A stretch of 64,000 nucleotides of DNA from Azolla caroliniana (lineage: Eukaryota; Plantae; Polypodiophyta). The position numbers and the translations under genes were made by a program. The stretch lies in assembly GCA_043228905.1 (NCBI GenBank), contig JBHGNT010000007.1, forward strand, positions 12,834,001-12,898,000. Reading direction: 5' to 3'. The notes beneath the pieces are model-generated. The model was not told the origin of the DNA, did not search any database, and was given only the letters and a program-made list of their open reading frames with translations. Positions within the stretch are counted from its first letter, which is position 1; the number at the start of each line of letters is the position of its first letter. This document shows, in pieces, positions 33,887 through 62,300 of this stretch.

Positions 33887-36536
33887 ACGCACAAAGAGAA
33901 GGGGAAGAAGAAGATGTTGGAATACGACACCGGTAGTGAAGGGTCAGATCAGAACGAATCTGATGCCGGAAAGGAAGAAGGCGAATCTTTAGAAAGGAAG
34001 TCTGAACCGGTAAAGAAGGGACTCAAACCGGCTAACGAAAAGTTACGCCGGTCAACCCATCAGAAGAAAACCGTCATGAGGTACGGGTACAATGAATAAA
34101 TGGCGCATCACTATGCGTACATGACTAAGATGGCAGAAGTGCGTGAGCCGAAGAGCTACACAGAAGCAGCAAAAGACGCAAATTGGCATGCTGTTACAGG
34201 CATGACCATATAATATCTCGTGGTGAGAATTTACCGTTGTATTCTTTACACTCTTGTTTAACCCTCACACTTATCCACGTGTATAGAATACTACGGTAAA
34301 TTCTCACCACGAGATATTATATGGTCATGCGTATTCTATACACGTGGATAAGTGTGAGGGTTAAACGAGAGTGTAAAGAATACTATGGTAAATTCTCACC
34401 ACAGGATATTATATGGTCATGCCCGTAACACATGCTGCTAAGGAGGAAGAAATGCGGGCACTAGATACCAACGATACATGGGACCTTGTTGACCCTCCCT
34501 GACGGTGCAAATCGATCGGTTGCAAATGGGTGTACAAAGTAAAGTACAACGCCGACAATTCGGTCAACCGGTCCAAGGCCCGGTTAGTGGCGAAGGGATA
34601 CACATAGACCCACATAATTGACTACGATGAGACCTTTGCTCCGGTAGCGAAGATGACGACGGTTCGTGTGGTACTGGCGGTTGCTGCGGCAAGGGGATGA
34701 CATCTTCACCAAATGGATGCAAAGAATGTGTTTCTTCAAGGTGACCTTGAAGAACGGGTCTATATGATCCAACCCCCCCGGTTTCCAATCGGAGATGAAC
34801 AAGTTGGTAGTGTGCCGACTCAAGAAGTCGCTTTACGGTTTGAAGCAAGCCCCTCGAACTTTGAATGTGAAGATCACGCACCGGCTGCGTAAGATGGGGT
34901 TTGCGGCCTCAAAGTCCGACTCTTCATTGTTCATCCAGAATGGTCTGGACGGTCCGGTTTGCATTTTGCTTTATGTAGATGATTTAGTCATCACCGGACC
35001 CGGACTCCTTGCAATTGGCCGAGTGAAGTCCCAACCGTTGGACGCATTTGAAATGAAGGACTTGGGGGACCTTCATTATTTTCTTGGGATCGAGGTGATC
35101 TGAACCCCTGATGGCATATTGCTCTCACAACGCCATTATGTGTTGAATATGGTGTACAAGTTCAGCATGACAGAATGTCGACCGATCTCCACACCCCTGG
35201 ATCGAAACCTAAAGCTACGTCCTAACTTCGGCTCGACCTGCGATGAGAAATGGTTTCGAAAAATTGTCGAAAGCCTCATATACTTGACAATCACTCAACC
35301 TGACATCAGTTACTCAGTCAGAGTGATCAGCTAGTTCATGTAGAACCCGACCGTCGAGCACCATCAGTGCACACACCGGATACTCCGGTATGTTAGCAGC
35401 ACGAAGGATTGGGGACTGTTATACCAAAATGATATAGCTAGGAAGCTAGTCGGATATACTGATGTCGATTGGGATGGTGATGCATTGGATCGCCGATCCA
35501 CCTCCGGTTACATGTTTTCTCTTGGTAGAGTGGTTGTTGCGTGGAGCAGCAAAAAGTAGCCAACAGTGGCTCGGTCGAGCACTGAGGCTGAATACCGGGG
35601 CGCTACCATTGCCACCTGTGAAGCCATCTGGCTTCGGCGACTGCTACGAGACCTCCGGATCGAGGTGCCGACCCCAATCCTGATTTATTGTGACAACGTA
35701 AGCAGCATACATCTCGCCAAGAACCCTGTATTCCATGCTCAGACAAAGCACATAGAAGTGCATTATCACTTTGTTCGCGAGCGGGTCCTGAGCAGTGAAG
35801 TTGAACTTCGGTAAGTTCACAAGGATTGGCAAGTTGCTAACATCTTCACCAAGCCCCTCGGATCGAACAAGTTGCAGCATTTTTCGAAAAGATGCTCGGC
35901 ATTCAGCATCTCGATGTGCCGCACTTGAGAGGGAGAACGAGAACGAGAACGAATGGCACCAGACAAGGAGCTAGAGAGGAAGAAAGAACCAAGGGGGGAG
36001 ATAAGCATAAAAAGGAAGTCGAACCGACCGAAGGAATCGGCACATCCGAACAAGTCGGAGCAAGCAACAATGGAGGCAGAGTCAAGAAGGACAGAGCCGA
36101 CCAGAAGAAGGCCAAGACCCGAATGTGGTCCGATGTGGTGAAGGGCCTAAAAACGGAAGACGAGTTGGAAACTACCAACTCGGACAAGAGCTGGAATGAA
36201 TTGGAGGAAGCTTATTCGGTTCCAGATTCGGAGAAATCGGATCAACTAAAGGCCAAGCGGATGAGAAGGCAATGGAAGTCGACACTGACACGGAGGAACC
36301 GATGGATCGACAAGCGCAGGAGTCATAACAGCAAAGGAGCTGAAATGGGCATGTTGAGCAGACAAGCCGACCAAGGAGGTCGATGTGCGCAATACCGGAC
36401 GGGTCACGGGAAGCGGAACCGAACCGGACAAGGAGTGCGAGCAAGCCGGGAGGACGTCAGAAGGAGTCGGAGGAAAGGATCGGCTACTGGAGACACTAAC
36501 ACCACGATCCGACCTCAATGTGAGGTTGAGGGGGAG
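33887..36536 (+). pseudogene. Copia E RT-RNase H and charged 3' extension
   Basis: KKSLYGLKQAPR, LLYVDDL, ARSSTEAEY, CDNVSSI, KHIEVHYHFVRE. Confidence 0.92.
34192..34430. mobile_element. 239-bp palindromic (foldback/MITE-like) insertion
   Basis: TGTTAC...GTAACA ends; perfect 5-bp TSD CATGC; internal A-B-A'-B'-A' inverted-repeat structure. Confidence 0.9.
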
Positions 36537-37063: not shown

Positions 37064-37480
37064 ATGGACAGAGGAATGGCAAGTTCACTTCTGACGAAAA
37101 AGCTCGACCAGAGCAACTATGCATCCTGGTCATATAAAATGCACCAATACCTATTGGGGCATGTATATTGGAGCTATGTGGAAGAAACCAACGAGGTAGC
37201 ACCGGAACCGGCACACAAAGACTTCCTCATGTCCGGTGTGCATGATTGGATGCTCAGCTACATCAAGGATGCAAAAACGCCAACAGAGGCCTGGGGAAAT
37301 CTTCCGAAGATTTTCCCAACAAGTACCATAACCCGTAAGTTGCAGCTCTGATAGGAGTTGAACAAAATCCGGCAAAGAGATATGCAGGTTACGAACTACA
37401 CCACTAAGATAAAGGAGATTTGTGACGCGCTCAGGTCCATCAATGTGATGGTGGACGAAGATGAGATTGTCTAGATCTGT
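37064..37480 (+). pseudogene. Copia gag of the tandem unit, truncated at a PLE-derived insertion
   Basis: MDRGMASSLLTKKLDQSNYASWSYKMHQYLLGH. Confidence 0.88.
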
Positions 37481-38281
37481 TCATGTGTTTTTGTTGATCT
37501 TCCAGCCGGTACAAGGAGTGCGAAACAGTGAAATCATTGATGGGTTGTAGATAAGTCGAGAGGGAGAAGAGACCACCAAAATTGATTTGAGCTCACCCGA
37601 ATTGTAGACAAAACTTGGTGTAGGCGAGGATTAGACGAGATAAAGGGAAGGGAGAGGGAGATGAGGGATCAAAACACTAATAATAAAACTCTAATTAAGA
37701 ATAAAACACTAAATAAGATTAAAACATACCCATATGCTTGAGAGAGAGATAGAGGGATTGAACAAAACTAATATTCATTAAGATAGGGTTTACAATGAGA
37801 TTAGGGGAAATGGGAAGGGCCACGAGCAAACTAGTTTCGCCCCCTATGGGGCTCAGCAGTGGTAAGTGGTCTTTGGGGTATGATGGTGTTTATATAGGGA
37901 GGTTTAGGAGAGGCATTAGAAAAATGAGAATAAGGAGTGTTGAGTGGAGGTGTGTTGAGTGGAGGTGTGCTAATGGGTATGATTGAAAAGGGGAAGGAAA
38001 GAAGAGAACGCTATATAATATAATGAGGGGGAGAGGATTTAATGTCAAGGGGTAATAGTGGGTGTTTAAAAAAATCTAAGGGGATGAAAAGGTAACAATA
38101 AAGGCAAAAATGGGAAACAAAAGGGGAGAGTAAGGGAGGTATAGAACTAGAGAGAGGGGAACTTAAAAAAAATGAAGAGGGGAAAAGAAGAAAGGGAGAG
38201 AGAGAGGGAGAGAGGGAGAGAGAGGAGTGATTGGTTATAGGGAAGAGAGTGGAGAGAGGGGAACTTAGAAAAAAGGAAGAA

Positions 38282-38328
<47 letters not shown>

Positions 38329-38788
38329 TGATTAGTCATAGGGAAGAGAGTGGAGAGAGGGGAACTTAGAAAAAAGGAAGAGGGGTAAAAGAAGAAAGGG
38401 AGAGAGGGAGAGAGAGAGGGGTAGGGAAAAGAGAAAAGGGAGGGATATGAATGAATATAAGAGAAAGTAAGAGACGATTAAAAGGAAACAAGGATTGGAA
38501 AAACCATTAGAGGGGGGCGAGAAATACTAAAGTAGACATTAAAATTAAATTGAAGGGGCTAAAAATAAAAAGGCTAGAAAGTAAAAAATCTCAAGGAAAC
38601 AAATGGAGAAGGTTAGGGAAAAGAGAAAAGGGAGGGGTACGAATGAACACAAGAGAAAGTAAGAGAAGATTAAATGAAAAATCAAAATAACATAAAGTAA
38701 ATTGCAAAAGGTGGGATTGGAAATAGGAGAGGGTGGGGCAAGGGTAGAGTTGAAATTAGGAGGAAGTGTGGAGATGTAAGCTCGTGAC
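37481..38788 (-). mobile_element. Non-coding Penelope-like derivative carrying a hammerhead ribozyme
   Basis: 37481-37718 is homologous to 54183-54420; pyrimidine-rich sense strand like the PLE UTRs; hammerhead at 37818-37871; no RT remnants. Confidence 0.65.
37818..37871 (-). ncRNA. Minimal type I hammerhead ribozyme (core variant CUGCUGA)
   Basis: Minus strand CCAC-UUAC-CA CUGCUGA GCCCC-AUAG-GGGGC GAAAC-UA-GUU UG-CUC-GUGG. Confidence 0.75.
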
Positions 38789-38789
38789 A

Positions 38790-39661
38790 AACACCATGTT
38801 ATGCAATAGAGAGTAGGGTTGAAGATACAACATTTCTAAAATGAATACAAAGTCCCAATTACCAAGTGTAGTCCCGGGTATATGAACTAAAAGAGAGATA
38901 AAGAGATAAAATGGAATGCATGGCTACTAAATGTAGTCTCATGCTTACAATAGTGTTGAGTGCTTGTGATGCAAGAGGATGGGCAAAAACCGATGATGTT
39001 GCAAACGCCACGTAACTCCTAGTGGGGGCACTCAACATGAACGAAGGCTCGACGAATGACGATGCGACCTCGATGTGGATGCCTATCCCCGATATGTACA
39101 CACACCAGGTAGAGGGAACACCTGGAGGTAGAGGGAACACGACCAACGGATCAAAGATCAATGCAAAGGGGACACGGTGAGCAGAGAACACCTGAGACAG
39201 AGAACACTTGAGAGAGAGAACGTGGTCGACAAAGAAGACCTAGAGGATCCAGATGGGTCTCGACAAGGAGAGTTTGCAGAGAATGTCCGAGAGAGAGAAT
39301 GCGGCCAACAAAGGAAAGGTCGATGCAACGAGGACACAATAGAACACCTGAGAGAGATGACGCAACAAGGACACAGTTGAACACCTAAGGTCGATGCAAC
39401 GAGGACACGGTACAACACCTGAGGTCGATGCAACGAGGACACAGTAGAAGACCTGAGCGTATTGTTGTTGCAGAGAGGACAAGATGAGCAGGGAATGCTT
39501 GGAGTTTGCAATGTGAGCAGAGAACGTGGAGAAACTTGTGCAGAAGTTGGAAGAGAGAGAGAGAGAGAGAGAGAGGTACGAACCTAGGGACTTAACGAGT
39601 AGAAGAGGGAAGGAAAGAGTGAGAGAGAGAGGAGGTACGAACCTAGATAATCATCAAGTGT

Positions 39662-52249: not shown

Positions 52250-55030
52250 GTATGCCCTCTTTACATTAACGTTATATTAAATTAATGTCTGTAGAAGTCC
52301 AAATTGGCTTATGATGGAACCAAATGTTACATCCGAGTGAATCTTATAGAAGAATGGTAGAAGAAGAAAAACTAGATAGTATCCAAGTTTTAACAATAGG
52401 CAAAAGCCATATTCCTTCTAATGACTCTTTCGAACAGTAGGGAGTTTCGTTCTCCAATAACCCCAACCTCACATTCAATGGGGATAAGGGCTGTATGTTG
52501 AATAAAGACATGAGAATGTCAATGGTGATAGTAGTGGCCCGGCCAATGTTGCTTGCAGAAGAAGGAACAAAATATCAAATGCAGAACAGAGAAACAAGAG
52601 TAAGAGCAAAGAAAATTATGATATTATATGCTACCAGTGTGATAGGAAAGGCTATAAGAAGCTTGAATGTAGGTACTTCAAGAAAGAAGTTGAACGTAGA
52701 GAAGAGGCTCTCGGGGACCTATATGTATCCCTGCCTTAAAACATTTCAATTGCCAAGGTCCTTATCTGGTTAGTAACTGTCTACCAAACACAATTACTGT
52801 ACAAGGAATGCTAACTGAAATTTCGGGTTCATGACAAACCAGTCATCAATCTTCATCATCCCAACAAGCCATGCAAGACCTAGCAACTTGGTTCCAAGGG
52901 GTATCTGTTGAGAATCAAGCTCAACTTGTGTGAACATGTACTTATGAAGAAAAGGACGATGTGTGAAAAAGTGTGTGAGGACACTTTATTGTAATCCGTG
53001 TAGTTGTCGAGTGTTAGTGTGGTCAAAGAATATTAGATATTCTTATGACAAAATCGTACTCAAGTGAATATCTTGGTTAGATTTCACCAACACATTTAAT
53101 AGGGCAGTCCCTTGAGGACTTCATTTAGTTTAGTTGATGATCTTTAGTTAATTAATATAGCTCTCTTAAGTGCATAAGCTGTCATCCCCCTACTGTGTGT
53201 CTTCTTATTTTTTGGTTATTCTCTCTAATCCTTCTCTTGCGTATACACTCACTCTCTCTCTCTCTCACTATGCTTCTGAATACTCAACTCTACTAGAGTT
53301 CGATTCTTTACATGGTATCAGAGCATAAGGGTTAGAGATCCTTCACTGAGTTCTACCATTGAAACTGTGTGAGCAGCTAGAGACGTTGTTCAAAACTTGC
53401 TATCGTCGCTGTAGTGTTGCACAGCAAGAGGCTCACGTTAACAGGATCATATGAATCAAGCTAAATCAGAAAAATGAATGCACAGATGGGTAGCACACTT
53501 CTAACAGAGAAGCTGGATAGGCACAACTACGCATCTTGGGAATATAAGATGCAGCAATACCTAGTTGGGCAAGGGTATTGGAGTTATATCGAGGGAGCTC
53601 AAGAAACAGCCCCCGATATTACAAATCCCAACTACCCCACATGGCAGCAAGGCACCAGTAGGGTGATGTATTGTTTGGCAACATGTGTGCAAGATCACAT
53701 GTTAAGCTATATTCGTGATGCGAAAGCCCCAACAGAAGCGTGGAAAAACTTGAAGAAGATTTTCGCGGCGTCAACCACAGCCAGAAAACTTCAACTCCGG
53801 CAGGAGTTGAACAATATTTGGTAGGGGGATATGTCCATGACGGACTATACCCTCGGATCAAAGACTTATGCGATACCCTTGGCTCCATCAATGTCGCAGT
53901 TGATGATGACGAGATGGTGCATATCTGCCTTGGCGGCCTTGCACAAAAATATGGCTCATTTCGAACTGCCATAACAACAAGAGAGAACCCCCCAAGCTTT
54001 TTTGACTTGCAATCCATGCTAATGGTTGAGGAGAACCATACACGGTCGAAAAGCACAACATCTGATGGGCAGATGCTATATACACATGATGATCTCGGTT
54101 GAGGTCACGGTCATGGTCGTGGAATTTGGGTGAGGAATGATTGAAGAAGAGGTGGACGATGTCCACAACAGTTTAATTCCTCTTCATGTGTTTTTATTGA
54201 CCTTCTGGCCAGTACAAGGAGTGCGGAACGGTGAAATCATCAGTGGGTTGTGGATAAGTCGAGAGGGAGAAGAGACCACCAAGATCGATTTGAGCGCACC
54301 TGAATCGTCGACAAAACTTGGTGTAGGCGTGGATTAGACGAGATAAAGGGAGGGGAGAGGGAGATGAGGGATCAAAACACTAATAATAAAACTCTAATTA
54401 AGAATAAAACACTAAATAAGAGTATCGGATTGTGTTGGACAGCCATCTCGTGCACCCTTCCCCCTCCCTATATGGCGCGCTGTTTGGGACTGCCCAAGGC
54501 AGCCGATAGACATTCGCGCCGTCCCTCCTTCCAACCCCTCATCCATGCTTACAACAGCCTCACCTCTCACGTTTTTAGAACCCTTACTCCCCTTTCTCTG
54601 TTCCCTCCTCACATCCCCCTTTGTCTTCATATGGAGGCAGTCTCTATCCTCCCCTCACCTCTCCCTCTCAATTATTTCCATATCTCATCCATGCCTCTGC
54701 ATTACTTCCCGATAATCTAACTCATGCCCCCCCCTATTTTGCCCCTAATTCACATAATACCCCTCCCCCTCCTTTATCTAATTTTCATTCGCCCCCCCCA
54801 CCTTTTTTTACCCCATTTGTTGAAAACCCCCCCTCTAACTCATACTCTACCCCTCCCTCGTATCTTAATAAACCCCCTTCTTATTATCCCCTATAATATA
54901 AAAACCCCCTTCACCCACCACACCACCCCTCCCTCCTATCCTAATCATAAACATTATAGAAATACACTACACCCCACTAATCCTCCCCCTACCACACACC
55001 ATAGGAACCCACCTTCTAGCCGACCAAAAA

Positions 55031-56987
55031 ATGACTAGCACGGCGTGCTAAGCGTGTTAACAAACACTTTAGACACGCTGTGCATCCTTGTAGACGCCTA
55101 TTTTATCTTCTTAATAGGACCACCTCCACCCCAGACACTTTTATGTGGCTAGGTAATACAAATACATCTTTCCCCTTCCGCCCATGCCAGAAAATATCCA
55201 ATAGTAATAAACTACAAAAAAAGTTTTGGAAACCGCTTAATGCTACCCTTCGAATAGAAAGTAAAATTCACAATTTATCTAAACACCCCCTCACAAATAA
55301 TGAAACACAATTGTTAAGCTTAGGACTCAAATACATTCTACCACCCTCTCTACCTTCCACTAATACTATCATTAAAGAATTTGCTAGTTTAAGTAGATCT
55401 TTACGTTTAAAACATTTCTTTAGAGACATGGACTCACACCCCCTTAATCCATTTAAACTACCAAATCCTAACTGGAATCCACCATCTCAATATCCCCATC
55501 TTGAAAATATTATTAAAAAACATGAAACCCTCCTTTTGTCTAAACTCCAACAACCTAAACTCAAACCCGTTAGGACACCATTTCACCTTCGCATAGCCCT
55601 TAAGAGACTTAGGAAAAACAACCAAATTATCATTCTTCCGGTTGATAAGAACATGGGAGTATGTGTTCTAGACAAAGATACCTATTATGAAAAAGCTATA
55701 AACAACCTCTCGGATACCACCACCTATAGAAAAGTAACCCATTTTCCATTAGAAGAACTCTTATATTGCCTTAATAGTATAGTGCAAAAAAATCTAGGAA
55801 CACTTTCCTTTATCGAAGCTAATTACATACTCCATAAACCCCTAAAGGGATATCAAGTATCTAATATTTACTTTCTCTCTAAACTCCATAAAACACCCAT
55901 TAGCTTTAGACCCATCTGTTCTTATATATAACTCGATATTCGAGCAAACCTCGAAATGGCTACATTTTCAACTTTTACCCATCCTAGTACTCCAAAAACA
56001 ATACCTAAAAGACTCACACTCCCTCATCGAGAAACTAGAACAACTAATCCCCCCTCCTAACAGTTTCATCTTCTCTTTTGATGTAGAATCCGTTTATCCT
56101 AGCATCCCCCTAAGTTAGGACTCGAAGCACTTCGCCATATCATCTCCCCACATTTTTCCTTAGCCAAGTCTAATCTTATCTATACCCTTAGCGCTCTAAC
56201 CCTAGAGTATCACTACCTAACCTTCGATAATCAAGTATACCAACAAATCAAAGGAACAACCATGGGTAGCAACTTCTCAGTTGTCTATGCATGCCTTTTC
56301 TTATCACACGTAGAAAACTCACAAACCACACCCCATCTCTTCCATTTTACTAGGTACATACATGATGCATTTGGGGTTTGGACAGGTACGAAACCCTAAC
56401 ACTTAGACTACCTTAGTTTCTATAGCCTTATGACCAATAACTCTATTATCCTTACGATCCATACACCCCCCACTAGGCTCCCTTTCTTGGATATTTGGAT
56501 CAATCTGAGAACTCTAAGTTCTCCTTCAATTGTTTCCAAAAACCATTAAATTCCTATCAATATCTTCCCTTCTCTTCAGACCATCCCATGCATGTTAAAC
56601 AAAATTTTATTTCGAACGAATTAAAACGTTACCTAGTTAGAGAAAGCACACCTATAGGGTACCTAGAAATGAAAAAACGTTTCTTCCTTAGACTCATTAG
56701 CTGAGGTTACCCACCCCATTTCATCCTTAAAGCCTTTAAAAAACATCCTTTCTCCCTTAGGAATACTCTCATCCATAAGCATAAAAACAAATGTTCCCTT
56801 GCTTAGGTACTCTAAAAACTCCCCTAAATTAGGCATCCACTCGTTTTTACAAGACTTACACGCCGACCTCAGCCTAGATCCCCAACTAAAAGACATTCCT
56901 AAGCCTTTCATATGTTGGACTAAGTCCAAATCACTCTATTATTATCTAGTCAAAACTAAATATATTAGATCCCCAAATCCCCATTAA
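55031..56987 (+). pseudogene. PLE reverse transcriptase; no C-terminal GIY-YIG
   Basis: IHNLS..LLSLGLKY, LRLKHFF, ILPVDKNMG, KLHKTPISFRPI, FDVESVYPSI, YQQIKGTTMGS, RYIHDAF (from YIDD), LPFLDI, QKPLNSYQYLPFSSDHP; stops after YYLVKTKYIRSPNPH. Confidence 0.88.
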
Positions 56988-57186
56988 AACATCACACTTA
57001 CTATGTATTGCTATCTATCTATTAGAACTAAATATAATAGATCCCCAAATCATCCCTTCCCATCAAACTCATTAGGCTATCCCTCTCTACATTCACTACC
57101 TCCCTAACTCCCACATCCTCCTTTATACACATTCAAAACCCCTCTCTCCCTCTCATCCATCCCCACCACTCCCCTTCTCTCTTCCC

Positions 57187-57467
57187 CGCCATCGTAGGTG
57201 CTTCCCTCGCTTCGGAGACATTTCCATTCTGGATCGACCTATGCTAGAGACAATATATCTAACTTGAGGATGTCACATGTGCCAAAAACCAGATTCCCTC
57301 ATTTCTTTTCTTTTCATGTTATTTACTTTTATATTTACTGTGTAGTATTTATTTTATTTTGATTTGTTCTTAAAGATGAGACAACACTTAAGATGTAATC
57401 TCTTATTTGGTCTTATAGGCCAGTTTGGCCTCTTAAAAGACGTTAATATATCTTTCTTTCTTCTTTC
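57187..57467 (+). mobile_element. 5'-truncated RTEX-like LINE 3' end inserted in the PLE 3' UTR
   Basis: Reverse complement of 60870-61180; (TTTC)n tail; flanked by TCTTCCC on both sides. Confidence 0.75.
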
Positions 57468-57504
57468 ATCTTCCCTTATATAAGCCTCTCACATTTTTGT
57501 ATAT

Positions 57505-57557
57505 GGTCTTTAGCACTGATTCGCTCATATAGAGCGAAACATGTTTGCCAAAAGACC
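57505..57557 (+). ncRNA. Minimal type I hammerhead ribozyme with a mutated core (CUGAUUC)
   Basis: GGUCUUU-A-GCA CUGAUUC GCUC-AUAUA-GAGC GAAAC-AU-GUU UGC-CA-AAAGACC. Confidence 0.72.
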
Positions 57558-57612
57558 TTTTCTTACATAAATTGAAATTTGAATTCTCTCTCTCTCTCTC
57601 TCTCTAATGCTA

Positions 57613-57853
57613 GAAGTCAACCCAGGGATACAAAAATGGGCTTCAGACCAGGACATAACAAAGGGGTTACAATTGATCAGGCAATGACAATTTGCCGTGC
57701 ACGTAGGCCTTGGCCCCATGGACCACGACCTCGACACCCTTGTCATCGACAGATAAAAGCCATTATCTCCCGCCATCGTAGGTGCTTCCCTCGCTTCGGA
57801 GACATTTCCATTCTGCATCGACCTATGCTAGAGATCTTCCAAAGACAAAAGTG
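57613..57853 (+). mobile_element. Internal fragment of the same RTEX-like LINE
   Basis: Reverse complement of ~61095-61338. Confidence 0.75.
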
Positions 57854-60865: not shown

Positions 60866-62300
60866 AGAAAGAAAGAAGAAAGAAAGAAAGAAATATTAAC
60901 GTCTTTTAAGAGGCCAAAATGGCCTATAAGACCAAATAAGAGATTACATCTTAAGTGTTGTCTCGTCTTTGAGAACAAATCAAAATAAAATAAATATTCC
61001 ACAGTAAATATAAAAGTAAATAAGATGAAAAGAAAAGAAACGAGGGAATCTGGTTTTTGGCACACGTGAGATTCTCAAGTTAGGTATATTGTAGCTTTTG
61101 TCTTCGAAAGATCTCTAGCATAGGTCGATGCAGAATGGAAATGTCTCTGAAGCGAGGGAAGCCCCTATGATGGCTGGAGATAATGGCTTTTATCTGTCGA
61201 TAACAAAGGTGTCGAGGTCGTGGTCCATGGGGCTAGGGCCTACGTGCACGGCAAATTGTTATTGCCCGATCGATTGTAACCCCTTTGTTATGTCTTGGTT
61301 TGGAGCCCATTTGTGTATCCCATGATGGACTGGACTTGTAGCATTAGGAGTGATGGGGCTAAAGAAAGTTGTGATTGTTCTTTGTGGATGAGCTTGTGTG
61401 GCTGTATTCTTCAACAACTTTTCGCGATGTCTCTTGAGCTCTAGCAAGAAAAGTCCTAGGCATCGTTGGTCCTCATATTCGATTACCTTGTGTAGTGGGC
61501 CAAAACCTTGTTTAGAGAGGCAATGGTATCTCCCTGTGATTTCATAAAAGACACTACAATGACAAACATAGTGTTCCTCAGATTCCACTCCTTGATTACA
61601 CAATTGGCAAATTCTCTCTTCTAGAGGTAGTCGTGTATATCTGCCTACCTCAATCTGTAGCTGATGTGATGAAGTTCTTAGCTGCCCTATCACACTACGC
61701 AACGCATAGGATAGATGTATGTCCATATAAGGTGTCCTGATGATGAATCCATCCTCCAATGTATGTAAGAAGTGCGTCTTATAGTGGGCCATCTTTGTAC
61801 CAAGTGGTATTTTGGGGCTGATCCATGTTATCTTGTTTTCCAAGTTAATAATATCAGTCCGGATCACTCTATTCTTTTCCACTTTGGTTGTATTTTGGTG
61901 GGGACAGTCCAAGCTATATTGGAATGGCGGTAGTGCATTTATACTCATGCCATGTGACTCGAACCATTGCAAAGAAAGAAAGAAGCCAAAATGGCCTATA
62001 AGACCAAAGAAGAGATTACATCTTTAAGTGTTGTCTCGTCTTCGAGAACAACAAATCAAAATAAAATAAATATTCTTAGTAAATATAAAAGTAAATTGGA
62101 TAAAAAGGGACGAAATAATTTGGTTTTCGGCACATGTGAGATTTTTAAGTTAGATATATTATAACTTTTGTCTTTGAAAGATCTCTAGCATAGGTTGATC
62201 CAAAATGGAGAGGTCTTTGAAGCGAGGGAAGCACCTGCGATGGCAGGAGATAATGGCCTACTTGCGCAACAAATTGCGGTTGTCCGATCTATTGTAACCT
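60866..62300 (-). mobile_element. Two tandem 5'-truncated RTEX-like LINE copies (61970-60866 and ~62300-61971)
   Basis: ORF 61259-61972 has LRTSSHQLQIEVGRY..ERICQLC..VESEEHYVCHC (C-terminal Zn finger); duplicated 3' UTR; each copy ends in (TTTC)n. Confidence 0.8.

Follow-up and report, generated by a model that had tools for sequence, protein, structure and literature searches.

An endonuclease-less Penelope-like element with two open reading frames in Azolla caroliniana: a decayed copy, its relatives, and the likely use of existing staggered breaks

The window, by which we mean the whole 64-kb stretch of Azolla caroliniana DNA that was analyzed, contains a reverse transcriptase (RT) region of the Penelope-like element (PLE) type at 55020-56987 on the forward strand, which ends just past the thumb/linker. 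The region belongs to a decayed, 5'-truncated copy of an endonuclease (EN)-less PLE, and the whole PLE insertion is nested in a Copia element. Homology to intact copies extends over 54420-57184 and then again over 57459-57605. The annotated features are as follows.

37477-39060 (-): longer copy of family E, with a degenerate hammerhead (approximately 37879-37812) and the same terminal motif as the next feature; 5' boundary approximate
54170-54420 (-): inverted 3' end of non-autonomous family E, from a repeat match; left boundary approximate
54420-55038 (+): 5'-truncated 3' remnant of ORF1 with a Pro/His/Asn-rich tail; blastn match to the intact copy L032 from 54413/54420, 94%
55020-56987 (+): ORF2, PLE RT (DKN motif, no IFD, no endonuclease); decayed here, 661 amino acids and open in L002 and L003
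55026-55083 (+): predicted -1 frameshift signal, with heptamer at 55026-55032, 5-nt spacer and hairpin at 55038-55083
56988-57184 (+): first part of the 3' UTR, pyrimidine-rich, from homology to intact copies
57185-57458 (+): 3' end of a LINE, a secondary 274-bp insertion foreign to the PLE, from a repeat match
57505-57557 (+): type I hammerhead with palindromic helix III (ACAUGU) and a mutated core; predicted cleavage after 57545
57546-57605 (+): start of the pseudo-LTR, with (CT)n at its end; the last ~125 nt including the terminal motif are absent
57606-57851 (+): second LINE fragment, after which Copia pol continues; Copia gag lies to the left of 54170

An earlier note on this DNA had described an RT ORF with all PLE motifs; the assignment to a PLE RT region ending after the thumb/linker was upheld, but the window copy itself is not open. 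It carries four indels (55927, 56106, 56507 and 56801, the last of 17 nt) and several in-frame stops, the catalytic YIDD is changed to YIHD (56355-56366), the hammerhead core has CUGAUUC in place of CUGAUGA, and AAAAAAT stands where intact copies have the heptamer AAAAAAC. Identity to intact copies is 96% (78 mismatches in 1,967 aligned bases), and the stop codon of the ORF1 remnant is TAG at 55036-55038. The family E piece at 54170-54420, which contains the GCACTCCTTG motif at 54224-54215 together with a hairpin, adjoins the 5' truncation of the RT copy and is the other half of a head-to-head insertion. No flanking duplication was seen for the window copy, the right end of which has been lost to the LINE.

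Both LINE pieces (57185-57458 and 57606-57851) show a match to the 3' end of the LINE whose zf-RVT-like ORF occupies 61259-62023 in the window, and the repeat at 57185-57851 was therefore ruled out as a non-autonomous partner of the PLE. The same LINE (57185-57458, 57606-57851 and 60875-62023 in the window; L203) was seen in or near the family A 3' UTR at two loci, inside the pyrimidine-rich part and beside its end. Separately, two nested near-perfect inverted repeats with arms of 52 and 100 bp, resembling a MITE or foldback element, are located at 34192-34430.

A genome search yielded 50 matches from the best 40 of 284 candidates. L032 is full length, at approximately 4.9 kb, and comprises, in order, a pseudo-LTR (~200 bp), ORF1, ORF2 (661 amino acids), a UTR, a hammerhead and a pseudo-LTR. 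ORF1 of L032 spans 768 codons from stop to stop, has a tail ending in PKND* and overlaps ORF2 at the heptamer A_AAA_AAC, 5 nt downstream of which lies a long hairpin. The heptamer is present in 39 of 45 junction matches, across families with differing ORF1 tails; the six misses were four truncated or edge matches and two AAAAAAT copies, one of them the window copy. The hairpin had a free energy of -18 to -32 kcal/mol in the nine folds computed. A -1 frameshift at the heptamer and hairpin is thus predicted to fuse ORF1 to the RT, and the sections of Craig 2021 (PMC8557442) dealing with EN-less PLEs also note a frameshifted ORF1. The ~80 codons preceding the IHNLS motif, previously taken as the N-terminus, are instead the post-frameshift segment, which is preceded by the overlapping ORF1 in the 0 frame. 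Nor did a proposed CxxC..CxxC motif there hold up, with the first 90 residues containing one, two and zero cysteines in families A, B and C, respectively.

ORF1 consists of a conserved domain predicted to be all-helical (pLDDT of 59, a low-confidence model) and a low-complexity tail. The structure model gave no fold match, a homologue search returned only two near-identical proteins, and no nuclease was detected in ORF1 by Pfam, Atlas or fold matching (the best Atlas value, 0.83, being a lead only). Contigs of four runs, presumed to be RNA, cover parts of the element and are uninformative with regard to expression or splicing. As a separate observation, NPNPN repeats of ORF1 are encoded in frame by (CCCTAA)n, a telomere-like hexamer (L110:4440-4710; L064:6434-6463).

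The presence of a ribozyme, as claimed in the earlier note, was confirmed: the hammerhead lies at 57505-57557, with its core mutated in the window copy. The hammerhead core gave 149 exact matches in the genome compared with zero for the control, with many loop-II variants, and helix III forms a palindrome of the dimer type, with the sequence ACAUGU in family A and ACUAGU in most others. In an alignment of ten sequences, 89 of 90 pair cells were intact, with covariation not above that of shuffles. Rfam matches for the hammerhead fall under the gathering score, and an Rfam scan of the window from 45 to 64 kb missed the mutated copy. The 5' end of L032 is located 2 nt past the predicted hammerhead cut, whereas L041 and L045 begin upstream of the cut, which suggests that uncut or circular templates are also used. 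The 3' ends of all families cluster 30 to 45 nt past the GCACTCCTTG-hairpin, just upstream of the ORF1 ATG, as expected from internal initiation; PMC11167929 describes such initiation near the ORF start for an anole PLE in vitro.

The RT shows the features of PLEs (DKx motif, GxAMG, YxDD and thumb), and the structural traits of PLEs (pseudo-LTRs, partial tandems and inverted 5'-truncated partners) are also present. In an RT tree for which 107 of 115 RT cores were kept, and which included no named Coprina and no Athena sequence, families A to C fell in a 27-row EN-less clade (100/100) together with four Cryptomeria proteins and one Ginkgo protein, with this clade being nested in a wider, all-EN-less DKN group. 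Comparison by eye of RT3-RT4 with the 'Selagine1' row of Fig. S1 in Craig 2021 revealed identity at approximately 40 of 75 positions, and the other rows, that of Athena included, matched less well by eye. The IFD between RT3 and RT4 and the CxC motif and/or N-terminal GIY-YIG, traits of Naiad/Chlamys including PLE-X, are absent, as is the C-terminal GIY-YIG with CCHH of Dryad, Penelope-Poseidon and Neptune. An Athena-like trait, a CC-ORF1 with a frameshift signal to the RT, is present as a sequence signal. Telomere repeats in reverse complement, which Coprina places beside the hammerhead at the 3' terminus, are degenerate in families B and G, where they lie upstream of the terminus, and are represented by one partial unit in A. 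The restriction to telomeres and subtelomeres that characterizes Coprina was not observed, with family A being dispersed and family G subtelomere-biased. The element likely belongs to the plant Coprina group. EN(-) PLEs are listed for Selaginella, Pinus taeda and Picea abies in PMC9033089, and type I hammerheads in Selaginella EN(-) PLEs are reported in PMC4209133. Given the grouping with gymnosperm EN-less proteins, the partial match to the Selaginella Coprina row and these listings, the suggestion of an undescribed lineage is not supported; the lineage has probably been described already, and the RT probably nests within a known plant family. A more distant EN-less two-ORF family (L273-L278; RT ~43% to family A), which is dispersed on chromosomes, has the same ORF1 helical motif and no match to the terminal-motif or hammerhead patterns used.

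The earlier observation that the RT lacks a C-terminal GIY-YIG was borne out. ORF2 stops at one common linker motif in families A to C, family G, the divergent family and the gymnosperm homologues, and the same end point is retained down to ~40% identity, whereas an EN-bearing protein runs on from there into a zinc finger and GIY-YIG. An endonuclease HMM built from 12 PLE endonucleases, which as a positive control matched 36 of 112 database homologues, gave no match in local ORF1 or ORF2, in any of the 24 closest homologues (best E of 3.3) or in 203 loci translated in all six frames (best E of 0.7), and neither of two matches for longer fused proteins contained an endonuclease. A clear GIY-YIG was thus sought and not found in intact ORF1 and ORF2, and the FYLL..WLGNT segment, put forward as a weak echo of this domain, has no GIY-YIG signal. 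A genome search with the Pfam GIY-YIG model, in which top candidates were scored, found only SLX1-like exons, but this search was insensitive, having missed two real GIY-YIG ORFs on unplaced contigs. A protein query recovered these ORFs, which come from Poseidon-type PLEs with an endonuclease, on C476 and C626 (L257 and L258, respectively; L279), both 19-24 kb in size. They have no close chromosomal copies among the scored candidates, the shared terminal motif is absent from the stretches read, and neighboring ORFs look animal. Assembly contamination is the probable source, with horizontal transfer being possible.

The GCACTCCTTG terminal motif is also common to the non-coding families D, E and S. 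Non-autonomous partners, as proposed earlier, do exist, in the window as the pieces at 54170-54420 and 37477-39060, but the repeat at 57185-57851 that had been put forward as one is the LINE. Family D is a 2.3-kb unit with a hammerhead. Families D and E (L188:5343-7919; window 37477-39060 on the reverse strand) retain the ORF1 start as a relic and are plant counterparts of non-LTR retrozymes. Family S, with 142 candidates, is a tandem non-coding unit of 434 bp that ends at the PLE terminal motif (L033:4399-4905 on the forward strand, L167:2815-3025, L227-L256); it has no hammerhead and contains a 5S-rRNA-like box (36.7 bits, slightly short of the gathering score, 38), and 3 of 30 loci have duplications, 22-44 bp in length. 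From its sequence, family S resembles a PLE partner of the Pol III SINE type. In one member, L243, a CCCTAA of the element itself forms the join to a short telomere tract.

The locus lies 12.9 Mb into a host chromosome of 22.7 Mb, in the interior, and there is no telomeric tract within the 64-kb window, in agreement with the earlier description of a non-telomeric site. A survey of insertion sites, which the note had called for, showed family A to be dispersed, and 15 of 39 PLE insertions to be flanked by host duplications. Family A occupies 37 loci on 17 chromosomes, at a median of 5.2 Mb from an end, and three loci fall within 500 kb of ends versus 1.7 expected; for hammerhead loci the corresponding numbers are 7 and 4.1 (90 loci from the 100 hammerhead matches listed). 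Neither set shows a clear chromosome-end bias. Families A and C interrupt Copia and Gypsy internal regions as well as unique DNA, and exact duplications of host sequence lie on either side of them. Among 44 chromosome ends read, eight have telomere arrays, one of which has a family B copy in its last 10 kb, and the 36 with no assembled telomere are uninformative. This family B copy, against the left telomere of C7, is a partial tandem (L110:3716-7890) with its sense strand toward the end and a GGTTTAGGG relic at the inner junction; the classical Athena/Coprina orientation at telomeres is reportedly the opposite. Family B also forms near-identical head-to-tail arrays of three to four full 5.6-kb units with open RT frames (L204-L206, C400; L216-L217, C22), which suggests recent rolling or multimeric templating. 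Seven of nine family G copies examined are located in a 177-bp subtelomeric satellite, and one, on C60, runs straight into (TTTAGGG)n. ATATGGA is common to the satellite and the family G terminus (L208-L213, L165), and among copies on small contigs all six that were viewed have one orientation with respect to the satellite. The lineage, with 681 RT candidates for the group in the genome, thus spans subtelomeric and dispersed habits.

Host direct repeats flank 15 of the 39 insertions for which both junctions were defined, starting at the 3' end and stopping at the 5' junction; given that the 15 cases were chosen after inspection, this is a rough, not a blind, rate. Their lengths are 18, 20, 35, 42, 90, 112, 119, 127, 150, 229, 286, 445, 590, 1,275 and 3,046 bp (median of 127). 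In a control, 0 of 342 swapped pairs passed the duplication criterion. The remaining 24 insertions have no flanking duplication. Seven loci (L045, L147, L152, L176, L196, L199 and L209) were kept out of the positive set as ambiguous, with an upstream copy not abutting the element or with a tandem or satellite context; L147 was counted among the 24 negatives, and L198, which duplicates L197, was counted once. The two copies of the 3,046-bp duplication share 99.4% identity, with a gap of 10 nt between its end and the element. That of 1,275 bp (L211) is 99.8% identical inside a satellite of ~90% identity, with this length having been taken from closer reading in place of the 2,170-bp array match in the automated list. 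Artefacts of assembly, or unequal exchange at a later time, might account for the longest duplications. For comparison, EN-bearing rotifer PLEs have duplications of 8-10 bp (PMC3846280).

An inverted second 3' end is present at the left boundary in 5 of the 15 cases, in three of which (L031, L033 and L167) it derives from another family; at L046 and L177, the paired ends are of one family. At L031, a family B element and a family A element lie head-to-head between the two copies of a single 42-bp duplication; each of them is truncated and telomere-capped in the orientation that telomerase would add, with 217 bp of templated filler between them. At L033 and L167, an autonomous copy is paired with the 5S-like family S. 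At L155, (TTTAGGG)3 separates the host duplication from the element. Telomere tracts at junctions are rare (five loci), and all six short internal telomere tracts in the 1.56 Mb examined, which was sampled around PLEs, were at junctions of PLEs or their partners. At the 3' junction, template and target were judged by eye to have 0-6 nt in common.

A duplication requires 3' overhangs on both sides, twin ends require both of these as primers, and telomere caps require free ends, so the junctions point to the action of the RT at two-ended staggered breaks. We therefore consider it probable that the window contains a decayed copy of a two-ORF EN-less PLE, likely of the plant Coprina group, the RT of which extends the 3' overhangs of existing staggered breaks throughout the genome. 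The use of existing breaks, which had been suggested before, is the mechanism best supported by the long duplications, twin ends and telomere caps. In the proposed sequence of events, a -1 frameshift would yield an ORF1-RT fusion and tandem transcripts would be cut by the dimeric hammerhead, with the RT then binding the motif and starting internally, aided by a match of 0-6 nt to the broken end. The other end of the break might undergo fill-in and joining, might serve as primer on a second RNA of the same or another family, or might be lengthened by telomerase before it is joined. The distance between the two strand breaks would set the duplication length, breaks with no usable overhang would give rise to insertions without a duplication, and non-autonomous families with the motif would use the RT in trans. 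Tandem duplications at breaks with 3' overhangs have been described for mammalian cells (PMC8355091), and PMC3846280 had earlier put forward double-strand breaks as priming sites of EN-less PLEs.

An unlikely alternative, which also requires no nuclease, is that the RT uses as primers Okazaki fragments or the 3' ends of nascent strands at replication forks that have stalled or collapsed, with re-replication or fork restart generating the long duplications. Duplications of 100-3,000 bp are indeed long for staggered nicks, and the residence of family G in the 177-bp satellite, with a single orientation in the six small-contig copies, would fit such an origin; two free 3' ends, as a two-ended break would supply, are nevertheless needed for head-to-head composites that share a duplication and for telomere repeats found on cDNA ends as well as host ends (L031, L155 and L184). 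We judge it somewhat less probable still that the breaks are made by a trans-acting or hidden nuclease, whether a host enzyme, such as SLX1, that ORF1 recruits, a LINE endonuclease or an EN-bearing PLE. The abundance of RT candidates is high for an EN-less group, SLX1-like exons exist, LINE pieces recur at PLE loci (the window and L203) and Poseidon-type ORFs are present in the assembly. The spread of duplications from 18 to 3,046 bp and their frequent absence are nevertheless a poor fit to one nuclease, and no target consensus was apparent by eye at the 3' junctions. A PLE nuclease acting in trans, as the earlier note envisaged, is unsupported, given that the EN-bearing PLE ORFs found among the scored candidates are confined to two small unplaced contigs with animal-looking neighbors and, in the stretches read, lack the shared motif. 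That these are ordinary telomeric Coprina copies, with interstitial ones marking former chromosome ends or having been moved by other transposons, seems very improbable. Sister families do touch telomeres (family B at C7 and family G on C60), and the family B pseudo-LTR contains degenerate C-rich telomere repeats, but the interruption of Copia and Gypsy interiors and of unique DNA with exact duplications on both sides largely refutes this explanation, and the single copy near eight assembled telomeres and the lack of clear end enrichment also stand against it.

Priming at existing breaks is our preferred reading; it has been proposed before for EN-less PLEs, and dispersed EN-less PLE-X are already known. 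We give roughly even chances to the broader proposition that, in a land plant, a PLE lineage of telomeric type that lacks a nuclease has come to patch breaks throughout the genome; in this view it primes at both staggered ends, can join two different RNAs, shares ends with telomerase, duplicates up to 3 kb and mobilizes partners, including a SINE-like unit with a 5S promoter, by means of one RNA start signal. If true, this would answer how EN-less PLEs disperse and would provide a genomic record of natural staggered breaks; insertion of PLE-X away from chromosome ends is treated as an open question in Craig 2021 (PMC8557442). The many young copies that record their junctions, the intact two-ORF copy, the defined start motif and the natural partners render the insertion question testable. 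PLE RTs are the sister group of telomerase, and competition between the two at internal breaks would bear on the evolution of telomerase. For genome engineering, an RT that can copy any RNA with the motif onto a 3' overhang provided to it could be of interest, and duplications of hundreds to thousands of bases would be a route to local gene duplication.

In endonuclease-independent L1 insertion and telomerase healing, an RT patches double-strand breaks, with telomere repeats at junctions. For L1 this is a side reaction that usually leaves no duplication, whereas for the Azolla PLE it appears to be the main route and is accompanied by long duplications. The partner families resemble non-LTR retrozymes, MRC1, 5S-derived SINEs and Cassandra in their short tandem non-autonomous units and in a hammerhead (D and E) or 5S-like box (S). 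Cassandra and SINE3 are said to have TG..CA LTR ends or a LINE tail, whereas family S ends at the PLE terminal motif. PLE-X (EN-minus Chlamys; Chara and Selaginella), which is genome-wide in Chara, is likewise EN-less and hammerhead-bearing, but belongs to the IFD-bearing Naiad/Chlamys clade and has CxC motifs, neither feature being present in the Azolla element. Athena/Terminon of bdelloid rotifers share a coiled-coil ORF1 with a frameshift to the RT, a hammerhead near the 3' end and tandem arrays (legend to Fig. 1 of Craig 2021; PMC6431247). Athena forms a distinct RT clade and attaches to telomere overhangs by complementary repeats, whereas attachment in Azolla is mostly internal, with 0-6 nt of homology. 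In the literature surveyed, which covered part of the key papers, we found no account of plant elements of the Coprina type that are dispersed and show long duplications, twin insertions of different families or a partner resembling 5S. Coprina (Sm1 and Sm2 of Selaginella moellendorffii and conifer EN(-) PLEs) shares with the Azolla element the lack of GIY-YIG, the DKN motif, the absence of an IFD and the type I hammerhead, as well as 5' truncation with telomere caps in some copies; the C-rich repeats of telomere-like sequence that follow the hammerhead of family B, degenerate and upstream of the terminus, are a possible further likeness. Coprina elements are typically single-ORF with fungal exceptions, according to PMC13159263, whereas that of Azolla has two ORFs and a slippery heptamer; its copies are, moreover, mostly interstitial, with long host duplications, several non-autonomous partners and 3' ends at a conserved motif that lies beyond the telomere-like repeats.
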